Virus record (IMG/VR): IMGVR_UViG_2713896773_000005
Length of the DNA: 12,384 bases
DNA from: a virus
Taxonomy: Duplodnaviria > Heunggongvirae > Uroviricota > Caudoviricetes
Direction: 5' to 3' (one strand)
A program made the position numbers and the translations under genes. How positions within the stretch are numbered: the stretch's first letter is position 1; every line of letters starts with the position of its first letter. Below are positions 855-7,645 of this stretch, in pieces. Below the pieces are notes generated by a model. It had not been told where the DNA came from and did no database searches. It was given only the letters and a program-made list of their open reading frames with translations.

Positions 855-1376
855 CTAACATCCGCGAATAATCTCGGTGTAATATTTCAAAAACTCGACT
901 CTAACCTGAGGTGGTAATCCTTTGGCTATCGCCTGTATCTGATTATCATGTTTTTTGATTAACTCATCTCCTTCAAGGCCATTAGCTGAAGAAAAAATTC
1001 TGCAAGCCAGATCTGCAACAGCGCCACGATTTAACTCCAGTGCGCCGTCCTCAATGGTGTAATAGCTGGAAGGAATCAGCGATTCAGACGGCAAAGACTG
1101 GATTTTATTCAAATCGCTACCGCAGTGCTTACATTTTATCGCCTCTTTCTTTACAAGCTCAGCGCAGTATGGGCATCGTCTCATGTCATTTTCGGTGATC
1201 TGCCTTTCTTCAATATCCCGCGCGTTACCACTTATTAAAAGAACGTGTATGATGGCAACTATAAACAACAAGCAGCCATACAACCACCAAGCGCCGAATG
1301 ATCGGCCCTTGCTTTTAGCGATGGCGGCAGGTATCAGCCCCAGAAATGCAGCTATGATGAAAAATTCCACTATCAT
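855..1376 (-). CDS. Membrane-anchored zinc-ribbon protein, 173 aa, function unknown
   Basis: Translation shows two hydrophobic helices at the N-terminus (IVEFFIIAAFLGLIPAAIA and WWLYGCLLFIVAIIHVLLISG) separated by a basic loop KSKGRS. A C-P-Y-C ... C-K-H-C four-cysteine zinc-ribbon motif follows, then a soluble domain of about 90 aa. ATG at 1376 with GAGGGG just upstream; stop TAG at 857..855. About 40% GC. Confidence 0.6.
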   Translation of the reverse strand: MIVEFFIIAAFLGLIPAAIAKSKGRSFGAWWLYGCLLFIVAIIHVLLISGNARDIEERQITENDMRRCPYCAELVKKEAIKCKHCGSDLNKIQSLPSESLIPSSYYTIEDGALELNRGAVADLACRIFSSANGLEGDELIKKHDNQIQAIAKGLPPQVRVEFLKYYTEIIRGC

Positions 1377-1431
1377 CCCCTCATTTATTATGGTGTTACC
1401 ATGATAACTAGGGGATGTCCGAATGTAACGC

Positions 1432-1656
1432 TCAAAAGGTGTTGGCGACTGCCTTTAGCGTACCCTTCGCAGTGGCAATGGCAAGCTCTTCAACTTGCTT
1501 AAGGGTCAGGTCTAGCTGATATGGCAGGTTAACAGGGACACTTGCAATGCGAGTGCAATCGTCTGGGCCATAGAAAGTCACGAAGGCACTGATCGCCTTT
1601 CCATTTTCGTTGGCATCCCAAACAACATCAGAGACCTTTACTTCTGCAATTTTCAT
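1432..1656 (-). CDS. Hypothetical protein, 74 aa, translationally coupled to the tape measure gene
   Basis: ATG at 1656..1654 overlaps the tape measure stop codon by 1 nt (TAATG). Frame open to stop at 1432. No family recognised. Confidence 0.55.
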   Translation of the reverse strand: MKIAEVKVSDVVWDANENGKAISAFVTFYGPDDCTRIASVPVNLPYQLDLTLKQVEELAIATAKGTLKAVANTF

Positions 1657-4600
1657 TAGTATTTCCCTCTAACGGCATTCCACAGCGGAGTGCCTGGTTT
1701 TCTTACTTGAGTATTAATGGTGTCAATCATTGCATCGTTGAGTTGCCTGCCAATAGCTGCAGCATTTGCTGAGCCACCTGTATTGGCCTGTCCACCTGAA
1801 CCAATGTTTATGTCACCAAAACTGACGCTGATAATTGGCACACCAGAGTCTGCCGCCCCAGCCTGATTTCCCCCAACAAGCCCACCAGAAGCGTAACGGC
1901 CTAAATTACCGTTGTTCATTAGACGATATAGGTTATCTACGCCGATCCGCCTAGTGGCTTCTTTGGTGAAAACGAACTCATCTTTATGCACGATGCCTGC
2001 GGGTTCATATTTACCGCCCGCACCTGTGTAACCACCGGAATCAAACAGGCTAACTCCAGAGTTTGCAGCGCTGGCATATGCTCCGCCTGGCGTGTTGCCA
2101 CCAGCACTACCGCTAATCCACCCCATCGCAGCCTGAACTGCATAGGCGACCAGTAACCGGTTTGTCACCTCTGCGATCATCTTTAACATGGATTTGGTGA
2201 ATTCTTTGAGGCTAGCCGTCCCAGTTGTAACCAAACTAGTCAACATGTCGGAAAGGCCACTGAACGTTGACCCCGCCACATTGCGCATTGCTTCAAATGT
2301 GTTTGTTGCGGAGTCGGCATAATCAGCCCATCCGCGTTTTGCACCAGCCTGCCAGTTACTGCGAAGTTCGTCTTCCTTCCGGTATGTCTCTTCCTGCTGA
2401 GCCAAAACTTTTTTTTGCGCGTCAGGATTGAAGGCATAGGTCTCAGACAAACGCTGACGTGTTGCCGCCCGCTCAGCCTCCCTGGTTGAAGTCCCTGCAG
2501 CTGCCGCATCAATTTCTGCTTGCTTAGCTGCCTGCTGCTGAGCAAATTTGGTCGCCTGATCGGCAAGAGAATTCAGTTTCTGCTGCCTTGCAATCTGATC
2601 GCCCAATGCTGCATTAATATCAGCCTGCGCGAGAAGTTTATCCTTATTGGCGAGCAGTGACTTCTCATCAATGGTAAGCGCACGGCCTTTTGGATCATTT
2701 GCCGTTGCCTCGAGAATACTGATTTTGGATATCAGTTCCCATTGCTGCTTACGTTGCTGACTGATTACATCGTTAATATCACGATGTTCTTGAAGCGTTT
2801 TTAGCTGCGCTTGCAGAGCTAAAGTCTCAGCATTGTAAGTGTCGGTTGAGCGATCACCTGCAGACACCTTAACGGCTGGGGTTTTGGGCGTTTTATTTGG
2901 GTGAAACTGCTTGTTTATCGCGTCAACTGCCTGTTGGCGTTGTTGCTCACTCCATTTATCAGGAGCGAGTGCGACATTTTTCCATAGCTCAGACAGAGCT
3001 TTAGTGCGTTTCTCCTGCCAGGTCGCTGACTGTTCAAGGATACGATTCCGATAAATCAGTGCATCGGTACGTTTATTGTCGGCATCGGCCGCCTGTTTTT
3101 CTGACTCATTAATTTCCTTTTGAGTGGATACTTCTTTTTGCTTTAGGCCGATCTGCTCCTTCAGGGATGCTATAGCCGCCAACTGAGCCTTGCGTCGTGA
3201 GTCATACTCCTGATCGCTACTGCTCGTATCATAGCTGTAGCCATACCCCATCCGTTGTCTTTCTGGTAGGAGAGCCTTCTCATACTCAGCAAGCTGCGCC
3301 TGCATCTTCTTAAGCATATCGGCAGGCGCTTCTGGACGACCGATATCAAGAAGGCTGTCCCACATCCCCTTGATGGCGTCACCAGTCGCTTTAGCCGCTT
3401 TCTCGATAAAGCCCATATTGTCGAGGATTTGCTGGCTGCGCTTCTGCTCAGCCTCGCTATAGGCTTTGGCTGCCGCCTCTGCCGCGCCCTCTTTATCACC
3501 CCGCCGTTCCAGCGCCGAAATATAGTCGTATTGGGATGAGGTGAGGAAATGGAGCGTCGAATTAAGATCTTCCGCTGCCTTGGTTGGGCTTGCATACAGT
3601 TTTTGGAAGTTCTTAATGGTGCTATCAACAGATTGGCCAGTGGCCTCCTGCATCGCCAGTGCTGCCCGGGTAACTGTTTCGAGCTGCTCCGTTTTAAATG
3701 TACCTGCTCCAACCACCTCTGCGAGTGTTCGAGCGGCAGCCGCAACCTTTCCACTGGAGCCGCCAATTTTTTGAGCCATGTCCGACAACTGGCTCGCAGA
3801 ACTTGCCGAATAATTACCCGTGAGTATCAGCTGCTTATTAAACTCACTGGCTTCCTGGCTGCCTTTGTACCAGGCAACAGCCATAGCACCAAGACCAACC
3901 ACTAAGCCGCCAATCCCTACTGTCACCGGATTAATGAAACCAATCAGGGTGCGTAAATAATCGCCTACACCAGTCAGCGCGCCCTTGACCCCACCGAACT
4001 GGTCTTTAATCTGCCCGCCCTGTTGCAGAAGGATCAGGAACGGCGACTGACCGCCAGCCAGCTGCGTGGCGATATCGGTGAATTGCGCCGGAAGCGTGCG
4101 CATTGCTGCGCTGTACTGACCAACGGAGATTCCAGCGCGCCGGGCAGCAGCTTCCTGCCGGGATAGCGCCTCTGGTAGTACGTCAGCGACACCAGAGAGG
4201 CGCTCACGCGTCTGGTTAAGGATTGTGTTGAAGTGCTCGAACTGAGCACCGTTAATGCGCCCAGCTTCGAAATGTTCCACCAGCTGTGCGTGCTGTTCAT
4301 CCAACGAATTGAACGCGCGGATAGTCGGGTCGATGGATCCAAGAAGGTTCTTTAACGCTGCGGACTGCTTTTCTGCCGCCTGGGTAGCGGCTAATTCAGC
4401 CTGAGCGCGCGCCGCGGCTTCTCCGGTGTCGGTCAGCTTGAGGCGGGTGTCATCCAGGATTTTGTTGTATGCCTGAAAGGTATCGGTATCCAGGAAACCT
4501 TTGGCCTGGAATTTCCGCAGCGATTCTTGCTGCTCATCCAGGCGGTTTAAGGCCTTGGTAACCGGGTCGATATTCTCCAGCAGCCCTTTGAGCGCGTTCT

Positions 4601-4787
4601 GCTGCTCCTTGAGTCCTTCGCTGCCTTGCTTCGCAGATTCAGCGCCAGCGCGAAACACGCTATTCAGATCATCTGCTTTATCTACAGCACCGGCCGCCGC
4701 CTGGCCGAGTTTATCCAGTTCGTTGCTGGCTGTTTTCAGGTCAGAAACATCGGCCCGCAAAGTAATCGAGGCGATCTGGTCTGTCAT
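1656..4787 (-). CDS. Tail tape measure protein, 1043 aa
   Basis: Longest ORF in the window, immediately downstream of the chaperone G/GT pair. N-terminal part is Ala/Gln/Glu/Leu-rich with a duplicated motif of about 55 aa. A central hydrophobic glycine-rich segment (LIGFINPVTVGIGGLVVGLGAMAVAWY) and a Gly/Ser/Ala-rich C-terminus follow. Start ATG at 4787..4785 overlaps the stop of the upstream T frame (TAATG). Confidence 0.9.
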   Translation of the reverse strand: MTDQIASITLRADVSDLKTASNELDKLGQAAAGAVDKADDLNSVFRAGAESAKQGSEGLKEQQNALKGLLENIDPVTKALNRLDEQQESLRKFQAKGFLDTDTFQAYNKILDDTRLKLTDTGEAAARAQAELAATQAAEKQSAALKNLLGSIDPTIRAFNSLDEQHAQLVEHFEAGRINGAQFEHFNTILNQTRERLSGVADVLPEALSRQEAAARRAGISVGQYSAAMRTLPAQFTDIATQLAGGQSPFLILLQQGGQIKDQFGGVKGALTGVGDYLRTLIGFINPVTVGIGGLVVGLGAMAVAWYKGSQEASEFNKQLILTGNYSASSASQLSDMAQKIGGSSGKVAAAARTLAEVVGAGTFKTEQLETVTRAALAMQEATGQSVDSTIKNFQKLYASPTKAAEDLNSTLHFLTSSQYDYISALERRGDKEGAAEAAAKAYSEAEQKRSQQILDNMGFIEKAAKATGDAIKGMWDSLLDIGRPEAPADMLKKMQAQLAEYEKALLPERQRMGYGYSYDTSSSDQEYDSRRKAQLAAIASLKEQIGLKQKEVSTQKEINESEKQAADADNKRTDALIYRNRILEQSATWQEKRTKALSELWKNVALAPDKWSEQQRQQAVDAINKQFHPNKTPKTPAVKVSAGDRSTDTYNAETLALQAQLKTLQEHRDINDVISQQRKQQWELISKISILEATANDPKGRALTIDEKSLLANKDKLLAQADINAALGDQIARQQKLNSLADQATKFAQQQAAKQAEIDAAAAGTSTREAERAATRQRLSETYAFNPDAQKKVLAQQEETYRKEDELRSNWQAGAKRGWADYADSATNTFEAMRNVAGSTFSGLSDMLTSLVTTGTASLKEFTKSMLKMIAEVTNRLLVAYAVQAAMGWISGSAGGNTPGGAYASAANSGVSLFDSGGYTGAGGKYEPAGIVHKDEFVFTKEATRRIGVDNLYRLMNNGNLGRYASGGLVGGNQAGAADSGVPIISVSFGDINIGSGGQANTGGSANAAAIGRQLNDAMIDTINTQVRKPGTPLWNAVRGKY

Positions 4788-5101
4788 TATTTCGTCTCCT
4801 TATGCATTACCTTGAGAGCCTCGCTTTCCATAATTTGAAGGTCAGCCATGCAGGCCGCCGCATCCTCAACCCCGTGTAACTCGAACATCCAGGGGAGAAC
4901 GTTGTAATCAAGGCCGGTCGCCCCGCTCGCGCCGACGCGCCACTGGGTTGCCAGGGCAGAGAAGATGGTGAAAGACTTCCACACAGAGGGCAGGATACCC
5001 ACCTCTTCCTCCACGTCCTCAGGCGTCAAACCAAAAGCGGCTAACTCCGCGAGAGTCGGTCCCGGCGTGTACAACGCTGCGGCGACCTGCCTTAGTTTTT
5101 T
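4787..5101 (-). CDS. Tail assembly chaperone GT, C-terminal (T) extension reached by a -1 frameshift from G
   Basis: The -1 frame relative to G is open from the slippery site at 5101..5095 through to the stop at 4789..4787. It has no credible start of its own: the listed start at 5074 is a TTG with no SD. Position between G and the tape measure gene matches the conserved G/GT arrangement. Confidence 0.7.
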   Translation of the reverse strand, partial: KKLRQVAAALYTPGPTLAELAAFGLTPEDVEEEVGILPSVWKSFTIFSALATQWRVGASGATGLDYNVLPWMFELHGVEDAAACMADLQIMESEALKVMHKETK

Positions 5102-5430
5102 TCGCGGATACCCATCAGCTCTTTGGTGTAGGCCAGACCGATGCTGTCGAACGCGCGCGGGTAGTTCTGAAGAAGGACAATAACGTTGTCGCGGGTGAAC
5201 TCGTCAGGTAGTGCCCACCCCTCGACAATTTCCATGAGGTAGTCGGCCTGCGGCTCGATAGCAGCCTTTTTACCTTCAGCCGACTTTTGCAGCTTTTCAT
5301 CCATAGAGCGCAGCTCTTCCAGTGTCTTGTGGCGGAAGGTAAAGGTCAGCTTGCCGTCTTCAGCACCAGCGCGCGGGATGCTGGCGGTAACGGAGAAGGT
5401 CGGGTTCGGGATCAGGGAGAATTTGGTCAT
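5092..5430 (-). CDS. Tail assembly chaperone G-like, 112 aa
   Basis: ATG at 5430..5428 with SD AAGGA upstream. Small acidic protein immediately upstream of the tape measure gene, ending at the slippery site. Assigned by position and architecture, not by sequence similarity. Confidence 0.75.
   Translation of the reverse strand: MTKFSLIPNPTFSVTASIPRAGAEDGKLTFTFRHKTLEELRSMDEKLQKSAEGKKAAIEPQADYLMEIVEGWALPDEFTRDNVIVLLQNYPRAFDSIGLAYTKELMGIREKN
5095..5101 (-). other. Programmed -1 ribosomal frameshift site (slippery heptamer A AAA AAC)
   Basis: On the minus strand the G gene ends ...CGC GAA AAA AAC TAA. The heptamer A-AAA-AAC fits the X XXY YYZ pattern three codons before the G stop, and a -1 slip enters the open T frame (...K/N-L-R-Q-V-A-A-A-L-Y-T-P...). 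Confidence 0.7.
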
Positions 5431-5443
5431 TTCGGTTCCTTAG

Positions 5444-5468
5444 AAAAACGAAACCCGCCGTAGCGGGT
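5444..5468 (-). terminator. Putative intrinsic terminator after the KilA-N-like gene
   Basis: Stem acccgc (5453..5458) / gcgggt (5463..5468), loop cgta, followed on the minus strand by TTTCGTTTTTC (plus 5444..5452). Sits 1 nt after the stop at 5470 and just upstream of the G-gene SD. Confidence 0.5.
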
Positions 5469-5469
5469 A

Positions 5470-6000
5470 TTAGTTAATGCCGGGCAGATACATCTGGACT
5501 TCGTCGGCGACGCGATCCCGGGCTGCATGTAATAGCTGCTTGCGACCACCAACACCCCACTTGGCCATTTGGCTGGCACACTGGCTAATTGCCTTGGTTT
5601 CAGTGTTGATGATGTGGTCGATTTTGTTCAGGCGGGACATGGCACTGATACCAAGACGCACCACTGTTCTAAATACTTCGTACACTTCAATCTCAAACTC
5701 TGGCTTTATCCAGGCGGCATAGCGGATTGCCAGAAGTTCAATGCCCCATGCACCACTTTGATCACCGCCTTTTATAACCTTAAGTGGTTGATTTTGTTCC
5801 GAAGCACTTTTTAGTGCTTTGGATTTTAGCGCTTTAACGAAGCGTTTGATCTGCGCGCTACGCAGGAAGACGCTGGGCCTTTGTGACTCAGTAGCCTCTC
5901 CGTTAGCTACCGCTGCCGCATGAAGATCGTTAAGACTGTACCGGCCTTCGTCATCAACGCGGACGGAGACCCCATTCACTGAGACGGTTGGGTGATTCAT
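5470..6000 (-). CDS. KilA-N domain-like protein (putative DNA-binding or antirepressor-like insert), 176 aa
   Basis: Translation contains ...GGDQSGAWGIELLAIRYAAWIKPEFEIEVYEVF..., which matches my recollection of the conserved KilA-N/APSES core (G-x-W ... LA ... A-W-I-x-P-E-F). ATG at 6000..5998 with an AAGG-type SD. Flanked by terminator hairpins on both sides. Confidence 0.55.
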   Translation of the reverse strand: MNHPTVSVNGVSVRVDDEGRYSLNDLHAAAVANGEATESQRPSVFLRSAQIKRFVKALKSKALKSASEQNQPLKVIKGGDQSGAWGIELLAIRYAAWIKPEFEIEVYEVFRTVVRLGISAMSRLNKIDHIINTETKAISQCASQMAKWGVGGRKQLLHAARDRVADEVQMYLPGIN

Positions 6001-6185
6001 GGTGTGTACCTTTTAAAAAGCGAACCTGTTCACACAGAAAAGCCGCCCCAAGAGGCCCACCGGCACTAACGGCAGTTCTCAGGAACGCTTTCTGAAAGGT
6101 TCTTGGTTAGAGAGCGCGTGTGAAGGCGCAGTTTGAAAAGATGGGTAATGCGAATACAGAAAATTCGCCAGCGGTACTCATTGCG

Positions 6186-6208
6186 AAATAAAGCCCGGCG
6201 AACCGGGC
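6186..6208 (-). terminator. Rho-independent terminator after the tail tube gene
   Basis: Stem gcccgg (6193..6198) / ccgggc (6203..6208), loop cgaa (UUCG on the RNA), followed on the minus strand by TTTATTTCG (plus 6186..6192). Confidence 0.55.
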
Positions 6209-6216
6209 CTGATTGG

Positions 6217-7149
6217 TTAGCTGACAGTAACGGTGCATGCCGCCGACGTTAGGGTCTTGCCTGCGGCGTCAGTGACTTCGCAGGTATAAACGCCAGCATC
6301 ACCGGATGAGACAGACGAAATGTTGAACGTCGAGGCGGTTTTGCCCGGAATTGCGGAGCTTCCTTTCTTCCACACGTAGGTGTAAGGGGCTGAGCCGCCT
6401 TGCATAACGACGGCTAAATCGAGCGCATCTCCAACACTAACTGCTTTGGTTGATGGCAGATCAGTCAGGAACGCCAGCGGCGTAACGGATGAATCGGCGA
6501 TCGGGTAAATCTGCATATCCGATTCGAAGTTCATGCGCGCTTCGTTGCTTTCCACGGCGTTGATTTCGGTCTTAGGCACCTTCTGGAAAGACACTTTGGC
6601 AGAGTAATAACGGTCCGCTTTGCCGCGCGGGTTATGGAACCACACAGCAGTGGTGTCGCTGGATTCGTCAAGTTCACTCAGACGCTTGTAAATTGCCAGC
6701 AGCGGATCGTGCGCGAAGGTGTAGACCTGCACCACGGCGTTTTTGAAGGTCGGGATGGTACGGGCCTTATCGTCTTCAAGGAACTGCACGCTGATGGTCT
6801 GCTGGTCACCACCCTCTGTGGAGAGGGTCATCACCTGCGGCATCGTGATCCACGTGTCGATTTTACGCAGCGTGCCCGCGCCAGTGCCTGCCGGGAATTT
6901 GGTGGTGTCAGAGGTATCGAACGAATCCAGCACGATTTTGGTACCGGCTACGGATTTAACGCGCAGCACCATATTATCGAGTTTTAGCCAGCCGGAGCTC
7001 ACCTGCACTACGTCGCCCGCCAGGATGCCAGCGGCAGATGCAACAGTCAGTTCGCATTCAGTAGCGTTAGAGGCAGCGGTAAAGGTGATGGGAGCCTGAT
7101 AGGCCTTGGCCACGTTAACACGCGAGCCGTTAGGGATTGCGAATGCCAT
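6217..7149 (-). CDS. Major tail (tube) protein with C-terminal Ig-like domain, 310 aa
   Basis: Sits between the tail-terminator-like gene and the G/GT chaperones, the canonical position. SD AGGAG upstream of ATG at 7149..7147. C-terminal ~80 aa (...PYTYVWKKGSSAIPGKTASTFNISSVSSGDAGVYTCEVTDAAGKTLTSAACTVTVS) has an immunoglobulin-like pattern (W ... DAGVYTC ...). Confidence 0.75.
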   Translation of the reverse strand: MAFAIPNGSRVNVAKAYQAPITFTAASNATECELTVASAAGILAGDVVQVSSGWLKLDNMVLRVKSVAGTKIVLDSFDTSDTTKFPAGTGAGTLRKIDTWITMPQVMTLSTEGGDQQTISVQFLEDDKARTIPTFKNAVVQVYTFAHDPLLAIYKRLSELDESSDTTAVWFHNPRGKADRYYSAKVSFQKVPKTEINAVESNEARMNFESDMQIYPIADSSVTPLAFLTDLPSTKAVSVGDALDLAVVMQGGSAPYTYVWKKGSSAIPGKTASTFNISSVSSGDAGVYTCEVTDAAGKTLTSAACTVTVS

Positions 7150-7170
7150 AGCACTCTCCTGAATTTAGGT

Positions 7171-7195
7171 AATAAAAAACCCGCCATCTGGCGGG
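7171..7195 (-). terminator. Rho-independent terminator immediately upstream of the tail tube gene
   Basis: Perfect stem cccgcc (7180..7185) / ggcggg (7190..7195), loop atct, followed on the minus strand by TTTTTTATT (plus 7171..7179). Starts directly after the stop of the 7196..7645 gene. Confidence 0.6.
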
Positions 7196-7645
7196 TCAGT
7201 AGTCAGCGCGGTACTGCATGCTGACGGGAATGGTGTAGGTTATGGAGCCACTGGACCCGTTGGACGCCGAGGTTGGCCGGTCCTGGATGGGTTGTCTCAC
7301 CTGCGGCGGCCCATTGATATAAACAGTCAGGTCACCATCCACCAGCGCAAGCCCTTCAGGAAATGCATCAGCGACAGATTTAGCCAGCCCTCTGGCCTGC
7401 GTCACGCCGCTGCCTGCTGGCGCAATGATGTTGAGCTGCAGGATGCCCTGATAGGTTCGCAATTGACCTTCCAGGTCTTGCCCCACCGTCTGTGCCGGCA
7501 GAACATAAACACGCCCGTATGGTGAGCTATCCGGGGGAGTAAACGGTATGTTCGGCCAGGCTACGGGCAGCCCAAGCGATAAGCAGATAACCGCAATGCG
7601 GCTCTCCAGTAGTTCAGCAATTCGCATTGACTGGTCACTGGCCAT
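7196..7645 (-). CDS. Putative tail terminator / tail completion protein, 149 aa
   Basis: ATG at 7645..7643 with SD GAGGTG. Located immediately upstream of the tube gene. Sequence pattern (...PYGRVYVLP...G..Q..I.AP.G.G...) resembles tail-terminator-type proteins; assignment is mainly positional. Confidence 0.45.
   Translation of the reverse strand: MASDQSMRIAELLESRIAVICLSLGLPVAWPNIPFTPPDSSPYGRVYVLPAQTVGQDLEGQLRTYQGILQLNIIAPAGSGVTQARGLAKSVADAFPEGLALVDGDLTVYINGPPQVRQPIQDRPTSASNGSSGSITYTIPVSMQYRADY

Follow-up and report, generated by a model that had tools for sequence, protein, structure and literature searches.

A covarying, pseudoknotted leader RNA predicted to sequester the Shine-Dalgarno sequence precedes a KilA-N gene and other accessory genes in phage late operons

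The 12,384-nucleotide (nt) stretch of tailed-phage DNA analyzed here (IMG/VR virus record IMGVR_UViG_2713896773_000005; the whole stretch is hereinafter the window) is the late operon of an HK639-like prophage, in which a gene encoding a KilA-N domain protein is lodged between the genes for the tail tube and the tail assembly chaperone G. Taken alone, this insert is an ordinary, moron-like hotspot cargo of the kind that is routine in phage mosaicism. The notable part is the leader that it shares with other cargo genes, which bring along a common, covarying RNA predicted to hide the ribosome-binding site (RBS) and no detectable promoter. The best explanation of the locus, and in our judgment a reasonably likely one, is that the slot carries a cassette of leader and gene that is transcribed with the late operon and translated under the gate of the leader. 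An earlier, sequence-only reading of the window, which took the gene for a possible regulator expressed from the prophage, was correct as to the observations and half correct as to the inferences drawn from them. The coordinates of the features are collected in Table 1.

The leader RNA consists of a small hairpin (H1) and a long hairpin, which are connected by a pseudoknot between the H1 loop and an internal loop of the long hairpin, and the base of the long hairpin is predicted to sequester the Shine-Dalgarno (SD) sequence. Three helices make up the conserved part of the long hairpin: P0 pairs ACCUUU (6100..6095) with AAAGGU (6013..6008), within which the SD sequence AAAGG lies 8 nt 5' of the ATG; P1 pairs AGAAAGCG..CCUG with CAGG..CGCUUUUU; and P2 pairs AGAA..GCCG with CGGC..UUCU. 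The H1 loop UUCACAC (6124..6118) is the 5' strand of the pseudoknot. Folded individually, 56 distinct leaders that belong to about 6 sequence types adopt the same architecture, and the GG of the SD sequence is paired in the predicted minimum free energy (MFE) fold of 62 of 73 distinct leaders. Several other identities of this RNA were considered and rejected. The long hairpin is not a conserved attenuator or intrinsic terminator, given that the 3' U-run of the window type is absent in the other types. A topology like that of the pistol ribozyme is contradicted by the pseudoknot partner, which is found on the other strand of the internal loop, and by the lack of a match in Rfam. Control by LexA was dismissed as well: no CTGT-N8-ACAG box was seen by eye upstream of the gene, and CUGU-GUGA-ACAG, which is part of the P2/internal loop/P1 region, has the wrong spacing.

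The window-type leader has two further peculiarities. An extra small hairpin (H0) is found only in the window-type spacer between the terminator and H1 and is invariant in the window-type relatives, so that it provides no covariation information; its loop UUUCUG is complementary to CAGAAA (6094..6089) in the 5' strand of the long hairpin. In addition, a 24-codon open reading frame (ORF) without an SD sequence (6107..6181, minus strand; ATG 6181..6179, TAA 6109..6107) runs through the spacer and H1; it is confined to leaders of the window type and is probably fortuitous.

The leader types differ by indels and, as a result, a plain MAFFT alignment yields only a meaningless 9-pair structure in RNAalifold. 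We therefore rely on a covariance model that was derived from the fold of the window, used for re-alignment, rebuilt with H1 as a second model and used for re-alignment again. Across the 76 distinct sequences, 85.2% of the cells are standard pairs compared to 73.1% in shuffles, figures that lean toward the structure because the alignment was fitted to the nested helices. Changes on both sides are seen in 34 of the 37 pairs, and none of 500 shuffles reaches the observed value on any of five measures; when, as a control, the partners are slid by 1-3 columns, pairing falls to 36-52%. The pairing of the SD sequence with the upstream anti-SD strand is conserved and supported by covariation within P0 (columns 51-151, UA:44, AU:14, CG:10; columns 50-153, UA:72, CG:3). 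The common occurrence of G-U at positions that are G-C elsewhere (CG:44/UG:31, GC:36/GU:31) indicates that the element is an RNA of the cargo-sense strand.

The pseudoknot helix was left out of both covariance models and nevertheless is 82-84% paired, with compensatory changes in 6 of its 7 pairs. A permutation test put the average of the longest Watson-Crick run at 5.84 for an H1 loop with its own internal loop and at 3.13 for an H1 loop with the internal loops of other leaders; with the own loop, the run is at least 5 in 24 of 25 distinct combinations. The two loops covary through at least 12 variants, which include CUCGCAC/GUGCGA, UUCGCGU/ACGCGAA, CCACAU/AUGUGG, CUCACC/GGUGAG, UGCCCA/UGGGCA, UUCUCGU/ACGAGAA, CCGAAA/UUUCGG, UCUCAC/GUGAGA and UUCGUAC/GUACGAA. 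The only leader with non-complementary loops (CCUUACC in H1, GUGUGAG in the internal loop) comes from an Arsenophonus endosymbiont (locus L034, 5866..6006) and may be a copy decaying in the endosymbiont genome. Where a phage or locus has two copies of the leader (L119, HK639; L123, phi80; L086; L011; L024), their kissing loops differ, e.g., AUCGCAC and AUCUCAC in the copies of HK639 and phi80, a pattern that, with five cases, is indistinguishable from chance.

These patterns bear on the alternative that the upstream element acts as DNA, that is, as an operator or a recombination site, or else as a trans-acting or antiterminator RNA, rather than as a translational leader. H1 is a DNA palindrome located, in some leader types, beside a possible -10 element; the cassette is clearly mobile, with edges that coincide with hairpins; and, because the element always lies between two terminators, an effect on termination is conceivable. 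We nevertheless consider this alternative improbable. The matches to the covariance models are strand-specific and in a register fixed to the ATG, and the numerous G-U pairs would turn into A-C mismatches on the antisense strand. Furthermore, the loops vary freely while their complementarity is kept, which fits base pairing but not recognition by a protein, and there are no tandem repeats, no put-like double hairpin and no match in Rfam.

The covariance models produced 89 matches in 1.01 Mb, all of full length, and every match examined (the KilA-N leaders and all listed matches at non-KilA genes) has the same orientation as the following ORF, at the ATG of which it ends. The leader so delineated is common to a guild of late-operon accessory genes that encode KilA-N proteins (including sb54 of ST64B), KilA-N-P63C (the HK022 gene, 99% identical to HK97 gp73), Rha (P22 rha, E=2.2e-14; phi80 rha, E=1.9e-21; the Rha-like gp73 of HK639), AntA (E=1.9e-22) and Ant-like antirepressors, an HNH endonuclease, and fragments of J-like (Tail_Tip) proteins. 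The J-fragment genes and HK639 gp13, also preceded by the leader, are alternative cargos of the slot that is occupied by the KilA-N gene in the window, and another leader precedes ORF x171.28 of phi80. No match was detected in lambda. In the 5,426 complete Escherichia coli genomes, the phi80-rha-type leader (128 nt) is present in 946 (about 17%), in up to 4 copies per genome, with 11 matches on plasmids; among the whole-leader matches listed for these genomes, 0 of 12 overlap an annotated feature. The window and 12 loci that span all leader types had no match in Rfam 15 at the gathering thresholds and only noise at E<=10, and no description of the motif was found in the literature searched, the coverage of which was incomplete.

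The leader also has a bearing on gene annotation. The annotated starts of three rha genes (P22, 3076 vs 3145 for the leader ATG, L121; phi80, 4240 vs 4276, L123; HK639 gp73, 47343 vs 47379, L119) are inside the leader hairpin, in frame and 12-23 codons 5' of the ATG that is served by the leader SD sequence. These annotated genes probably start too far upstream.

The slot that harbors the KilA-N gene is variable among relatives of the window. In 13 complete E. coli genomes and in HK639, the flanks are matched and the insert is not. In E. coli ET729 nothing occupies the slot, and a single hairpin lies in the 65 bp between the tube and G genes. HK639 carries gp13 there, and other prophages of E. 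coli carry 1 or 2 unrelated genes that contain no more than a fragment of the Phage_Tail_Tip (J) domain. Because the slot is empty or alternatively filled in relatives, the KilA-N gene is accessory, not a conserved component of the virion, and the sequence-only reading is upheld in so far as it saw an insert without a role in the virion. The tube-chaperone junction can be described as a defined exchange slot that is bounded by terminators and has at least 4 cargo states. Two loci (L003 3290..3625 and L007 3285..3620, both minus strand) have an additional small cargo gene, for a 111-aa protein (phrog_17483, weak RecX-like match), which follows the tube terminator and precedes the leader of the Tail_Tip-fragment gene.

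The two hairpins that the sequence-only reading took for terminators are both present. The G-side terminator was called by the terminator scan (-12.8 kcal/mol, z=-2.7 vs shuffles) and is annotated in HK639. The tube-side hairpin (-14.1 kcal/mol) is weak compared to shuffles (z=-1.2) and was not called by the scan, but it is kept in every relative, the empty site included, and is a terminator in the annotation of the HK639 depositors. In junction alignments, the variable part begins a few bases past the tube-side terminator and ends exactly at the ACCCGC-UACG-GCGGGU hairpin, which is identical across all cargo types, so that both terminators are features of the backbone and not of the insert. 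The empty site in ET729 has one hairpin similar to that on the G side, suggesting that cargo is exchanged via recombination at the flanking hairpins. The deviant base composition of the gene was also borne out: GC content is 0.46-0.51 within the insert, with the minimum of 0.46 at 5551-5850, compared to 0.53-0.58 in the flanks.

Close homologs of the KilA-N protein (70-95% identity) are encoded in at least 7 other late-operon positions, within unrelated virion modules. These positions are 3' of the major tail protein and phrog_791 genes in phage 29485-like siphoviruses; between tube and chaperone genes in a sheath-tube myovirus module; between the tail terminator and major tail protein genes; between K-like and I-like tip genes; 3' of the tape measure gene; 5' of a 497-aa ORF that, judging by size and position, is probably the tail sheath; and between Rz and the small terminase gene in ST64B (sb54) and the P22-like ST104 and SE1. 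In all these contexts, the gene is preceded by a spacer of nearly uniform length, about 160-235 nt, and the sequence 5' of the gene is conserved despite the unrelated flanking genes. A terminator that precedes the leader, AGCCUCGC-NNNN-GCGGGGCU6, is also conserved across phages with unrelated upstream genes (L005, L006, L009, L011, L023, L024, L028 and classic phages) and frequently has AU(G/A)YCYGCAGUAAAC next to it on the 3' side, so that an upstream terminator may be part of the mobile unit. A tRNA gene (L025 4178..4251; Rfam tRNA, 45.8 bits) is located about 1.8 kb 5' of the KilA-N gene in a prophage of Serratia fonticola.

The distance from the tube stop codon to the KilA-N ATG is 216 nt, of which, as claimed earlier, 185 nt are 3' of the upstream hairpin. 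The further proposal that this gap holds a private promoter found no support: the gap is occupied by the conserved structured RNA leader, and a sigma-70 promoter scan of 4700-7300 on both strands returned 0 promoter-like sites. Candidates picked by eye near TTCACA and UCUAAC have the wrong spacing or poor hexamers. An integration host factor (IHF) site in the leaders was likewise rejected since the consensus WATCARNNNNTTR, present a single time among 82 extended leaders, is not conserved. A terminator-like hairpin with a T-run is located within 70 nt 5' of H1 in 63 of 74 distinct leaders, and in both copies of HK639 only AU (2 nt) separates the T-run from H1. H1 must be transcribed because its loop covaries with the downstream internal loop, and a transcribed H1 that follows the terminator T-run by 2 nt leaves no room for a dedicated promoter.

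The insert could still be an autonomous moron, with a private promoter in the gap from which a regulator is expressed in the lysogen, while the rest of the prophage is repressed and the downstream terminator stops read-through. By the criteria of Juhala et al. 2000, the window has an extra gene between genes that are adjacent in a relative, a terminator downstream and deviant (lower GC) base composition; an own promoter immediately upstream was not found, with 0 promoter-like sites in a consensus scan that is crude. Some leader types have TATAAT just 5' of the long hairpin, but the window has UCUAAC at this position, and H1, which must be part of the RNA, lies 5' of it. The terminators are both backbone features, as few as 2 nt lie between terminator and H1, and a relative, P22 rha, is reported to be a late-operon gene that is detrimental in IHF-deficient hosts (PMC4936722). 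We consider the autonomous moron unlikely. The lack of a promoter-like site, the transcribed H1, the late-operon location of P22 rha and the backbone terminators together imply that, so far as the sequence goes, expression from the repressed prophage is not indicated.

Several observations weigh against the late-operon cassette with leader-gated translation. A promoter that overlaps the upstream terminator, or a weak or non-sigma-70 promoter, may exist. In several leader types (L005, L006, L011), a perfect TATAAT lies between H1 and the long hairpin and could drive a shorter transcript that lacks H1. The pairing of the SD sequence is a thermodynamic prediction, and the MFE z-scores against shuffles are moderate (-2.2 for the window, median -2.4). 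Finally, the best 120 of the 506 database relatives of the protein bear only generic names, such as 'KilA-N domain-containing protein'.

The analysis establishes that the gene is an insert, the fold of its protein, the covarying structure of the RNA and the presence of the leader at different cargo types; the course of transcription and the effect of the leader on translation are inferred. Under the favored reading, of a slot-borne cassette gated by its leader, transcription would come from the late operon, the tube-gene terminator being read through or antiterminated, and there would be no private promoter. If the late operon is antiterminated by Q, the flanking terminators would be read through, leaving the leader as the sole gene-specific control. 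The pseudoknot-braced hairpin would occlude the SD sequence and keep translation of a potentially harmful DNA-binding protein low or gated, and the downstream terminator and the leader would insulate the cassette from the tail genes. The structure might be opened by RNase III cleavage of the approximately 28-bp interrupted helix, by an IHF-linked host factor or by breathing of the A-U-rich P0. Cleavage of a leader by RNase III has a precedent in the lambda N leader. Translational gating would make sense because Rha-type proteins are reported to be harmful when over-active (phi80 annotation; PMC4936722). A more far-reaching proposition, which we put forward tentatively and with some doubt, is that the leader is an undescribed pseudoknotted cis-regulatory switch, and not just a passive damper, for the harmful Rha/KilA-N/Ant guild in Enterobacterales phages. 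Its cue would come from host or phage, e.g., RNase III processing or the IHF-dependent state behind the 40-year-old Rha phenotype, and the freely varying kissing loops would be a specificity code by which co-resident copies stay orthogonal.

The predicted nature of the protein, a KilA-N product of DNA-binding type, was borne out by profile searches and by structural modeling. The ORF matches Pfam PF04383 over residues 9-113 (56.1 bits, cut-off 23.8, E=3.8e-15) and phrog_129 (E=4.6e-58). A first AlphaFold2 (AF2) model, from 26 close homologs, had a predicted local distance difference test score (pLDDT) of 58.7 and was discarded; a second, from a 49-sequence alignment to which distant KilA-N-P63C relatives were added, has a mean pLDDT of 80.5 and a predicted template modeling score of 0.63. 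In this model, residues ~5-98 form a beta-beta-alpha-alpha-alpha-beta-beta-alpha domain and residues ~100-171 a single long C-terminal helix of ~70 residues. Mbp1 ranks at the top of the Foldseek search with the AF2 model (probability 0.97), and the N-terminal domain is accordingly modeled as an APSES-like alpha/beta fold, a known relative of KilA-N. A sequence search of solved structures gave only a marginal match to TcaR (E=0.0035). In the model, the long C-terminal helix probably mediates oligomerization. The protein is predicted to belong to the Rha/Ant/KilA-N guild as a DNA binder, dimeric or oligomeric, that would act during lytic growth on the DNA of the host or of a co-resident phage, or on repressors. 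Its putative link to antirepressors is one of guilt by association, through the leader shared with the AntA and Ant-like genes.

The same protein data speak to a BstA-kind function in prophage defense or exclusion, in which the KilA-N domain would sense incoming phage DNA and trigger abortive infection or a replication block. In favor of such a role, the rha gene of phi80, which lies behind the same leader, has the annotation 'DNA synthesis inhibition in IHF- hosts'. However, neither the KilA-N protein nor the alternative cargos had a match in PADLOC or NCBIfam, and the window protein did not match the BstA family in PADLOC even at E<=0.01. The protein is also short, 176 aa against 307 aa for BstA, with a helical tail only and no second domain, and its gene, located inside the late operon, shows no indication of being expressed in the lysogen. 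A defense role of this kind accordingly seems remote to us.

The remaining genes of the window place the cassette in its context. According to ORF calls and Pfam and PHROG profiles, the window is a siphovirus prophage late operon with all genes on the minus strand, in the order scaffold and major capsid, head-tail connectors, tail terminator, tube, the gap, KilA-N ORF, G, T and tape measure. The nearest sequenced phage is E. coli phage HK639, with 88% nucleotide identity across the tail genes, and proteins identical or 96-97% identical to the KilA-N ORF are encoded in IMG/VR prophage contigs and Kluyvera. A strong intrinsic terminator, GACCCGCC-AGAU-GGCGGGUU followed by U6 (7178..7197, minus strand; -15.1 kcal/mol, z=-4.6), overlaps the stop codon of the tail terminator gene 5' of the tube gene and has an annotated equivalent in HK639; given this terminator, the tube gene, too, is terminator-bracketed. 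The region 3' of the tape measure gene (855..1656, minus strand) contains a 74-aa ORF (phrog_2891) and a gene for a 173-aa membrane protein with a zinc ribbon (Zn_ribbon_3), in place of which HK639 has a lipoprotein gene and a YafO-family toxin gene. This region is probably a second accessory slot, and the leader motif was not found there.

Table 1. Coordinates of the leader, slot and neighboring genes in the window
Feature	Position	Strand	Support and remarks
Full leader motif, H1 to ATG+3, ~135 nt	5995..6129	-	Covariance models R1: 130.8 bits, E=1.1e-24; R2: 126.1 bits
H0, extra small hairpin, perfect 6-bp stem	6150..6168	-	GCGAAU-UUUCUGU-AUUCGC, read from the sequence
H1, small hairpin GCGC-CUUCACAC-GCGC	6114..6129	-	Stem 97.7% paired, 76 distinct sequences
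3'-side internal loop GUGUGAA between P2 and P1, 3' strand of the pseudoknot	6029..6035	-	
Long leader hairpin, variable apical part	6008..6100	-	MFE -45.1 kcal/mol, SD paired
Tube-gene terminator, left edge of the slot	6186..6210	-	AGGCCCGG-UUCG-CCGGGCUU hairpin (6210..6191), then UAUUU to 6186
G-side terminator, right edge of the slot	5444..5468	-	ACCCGC-UACG-GCGGGU (stem 5468..5453), then UUCGUUUUU
KilA-N cargo gene, 176 aa, ATG start	5470..6000	-	Pfam, phrog, AF2
Tail terminator gene	7645..7196	-	
Tail tube (major tail) gene, C-terminal immunoglobulin (Ig)-like domain	6217..7149	-	Pfam Phage_tail_3 E=9.6e-45, Ig_3 E=1.3e-8; phrog_584
Tail assembly chaperone G gene, downstream neighbor of the slot	5092..5430	-	Pfam Phage_TAC_4 E=2.5e-27
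Chaperone T gene	5074..4787	-	DUF1799
Tape measure gene	4787..1656	-	

The leader precedes genes of textbook phages the regulation of which is unexplained, namely the rha genes of P22 and phi80 and the HK022 ORF. If it regulates these genes, it provides a mutable handle on how phages restrain proteins of the Rha, KilA-N and Ant types and on why such proteins become toxic in hosts that are deficient in IHF. The known bacterial cis-regulatory RNAs would, in addition, gain a widespread family, and several annotated start codons would be corrected.

Comparison with known systems separates the parts of this arrangement that have precedents from those that do not. The BstA proteins (PMC8585504) have a C-terminal domain that is absent from the window protein, and the bstA gene lies 3' of the repressor gene rather than in the late operon. 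The DNA-binding domains of APSES/Mbp1 proteins and the baculovirus Bro/KilA-N proteins are only 10-15% identical to the window protein in sequence and come from an unrelated eukaryotic or baculoviral context. The moron concept was developed for HK97 and HK022 (Juhala et al. 2000; Cumby et al. 2012, cited in PMC8585504), an example being HK97 gene 15. Like the window insert, these morons are extra genes between otherwise adjacent genes, with deviant composition and a terminator, in the tail cluster. A private promoter is, however, their defining feature, whereas the window has a leader and its terminators belong to the slot.

Silencing of an accessory phage gene by an RNA structure that sequesters the RBS is known from IsrK-orf45-anrP of Gifsy-1 (PMC4825925). 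This system, as well as c4/ant of P1, sar/ant of P22 and com/mom of Mu, resembles the window in the combination of an antirepressor-type or toxic gene with an RBS-sequestering structure. All four differ from it in the involvement of a trans-acting RNA or protein, none of which is evident for the window leader, and have no sequence or Rfam relationship to it. The identity of the leader with IsrK itself was rejected, given that the Rfam isrK model had no match; the 'orf45' of IsrK is a 45-codon upstream ORF unrelated to ORF45 of ST104.

The 242-aa KilA-N-P63C ORF of HK022, Sb54 of ST64B and ORF45 of ST104 are KilA-N proteins that are encoded in late operons behind the same leader; the window protein shares 79-82% identity with Sb54 and ORF45. 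Unlike the window gene, these genes are located between Rz and the terminase genes or cos, and the HK022 protein has a P63C C-terminal domain in place of the single long helix, with about 39% identity in the KilA-N part. An identification of the HK022 ORF as Roi is unsupported, the records naming it hypothetical or, in HK97, Gp73.

The rha genes of P22 (orf201) and phi80 differ from the window gene in encoding a Phage_pRha domain instead of KilA-N and in their location between the lysis and packaging genes rather than in the tail cluster. The link of Rha to IHF is not mirrored by any IHF consensus conserved in the leaders. The Rha phenotype of P22 and phi80 was reportedly described by Mozola and Friedman in 1985. 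The rha products are harmful to phage growth in hosts without IHF, according to published work (PMC4936722) and the phi80 annotation, and are similar in size to the window protein (172-178 aa from the leader ATG, compared to 176 aa). Like the window gene, for which DNA binding is predicted, rha encodes a late-operon accessory DNA-binding protein and is preceded by a terminator and by the same leader.

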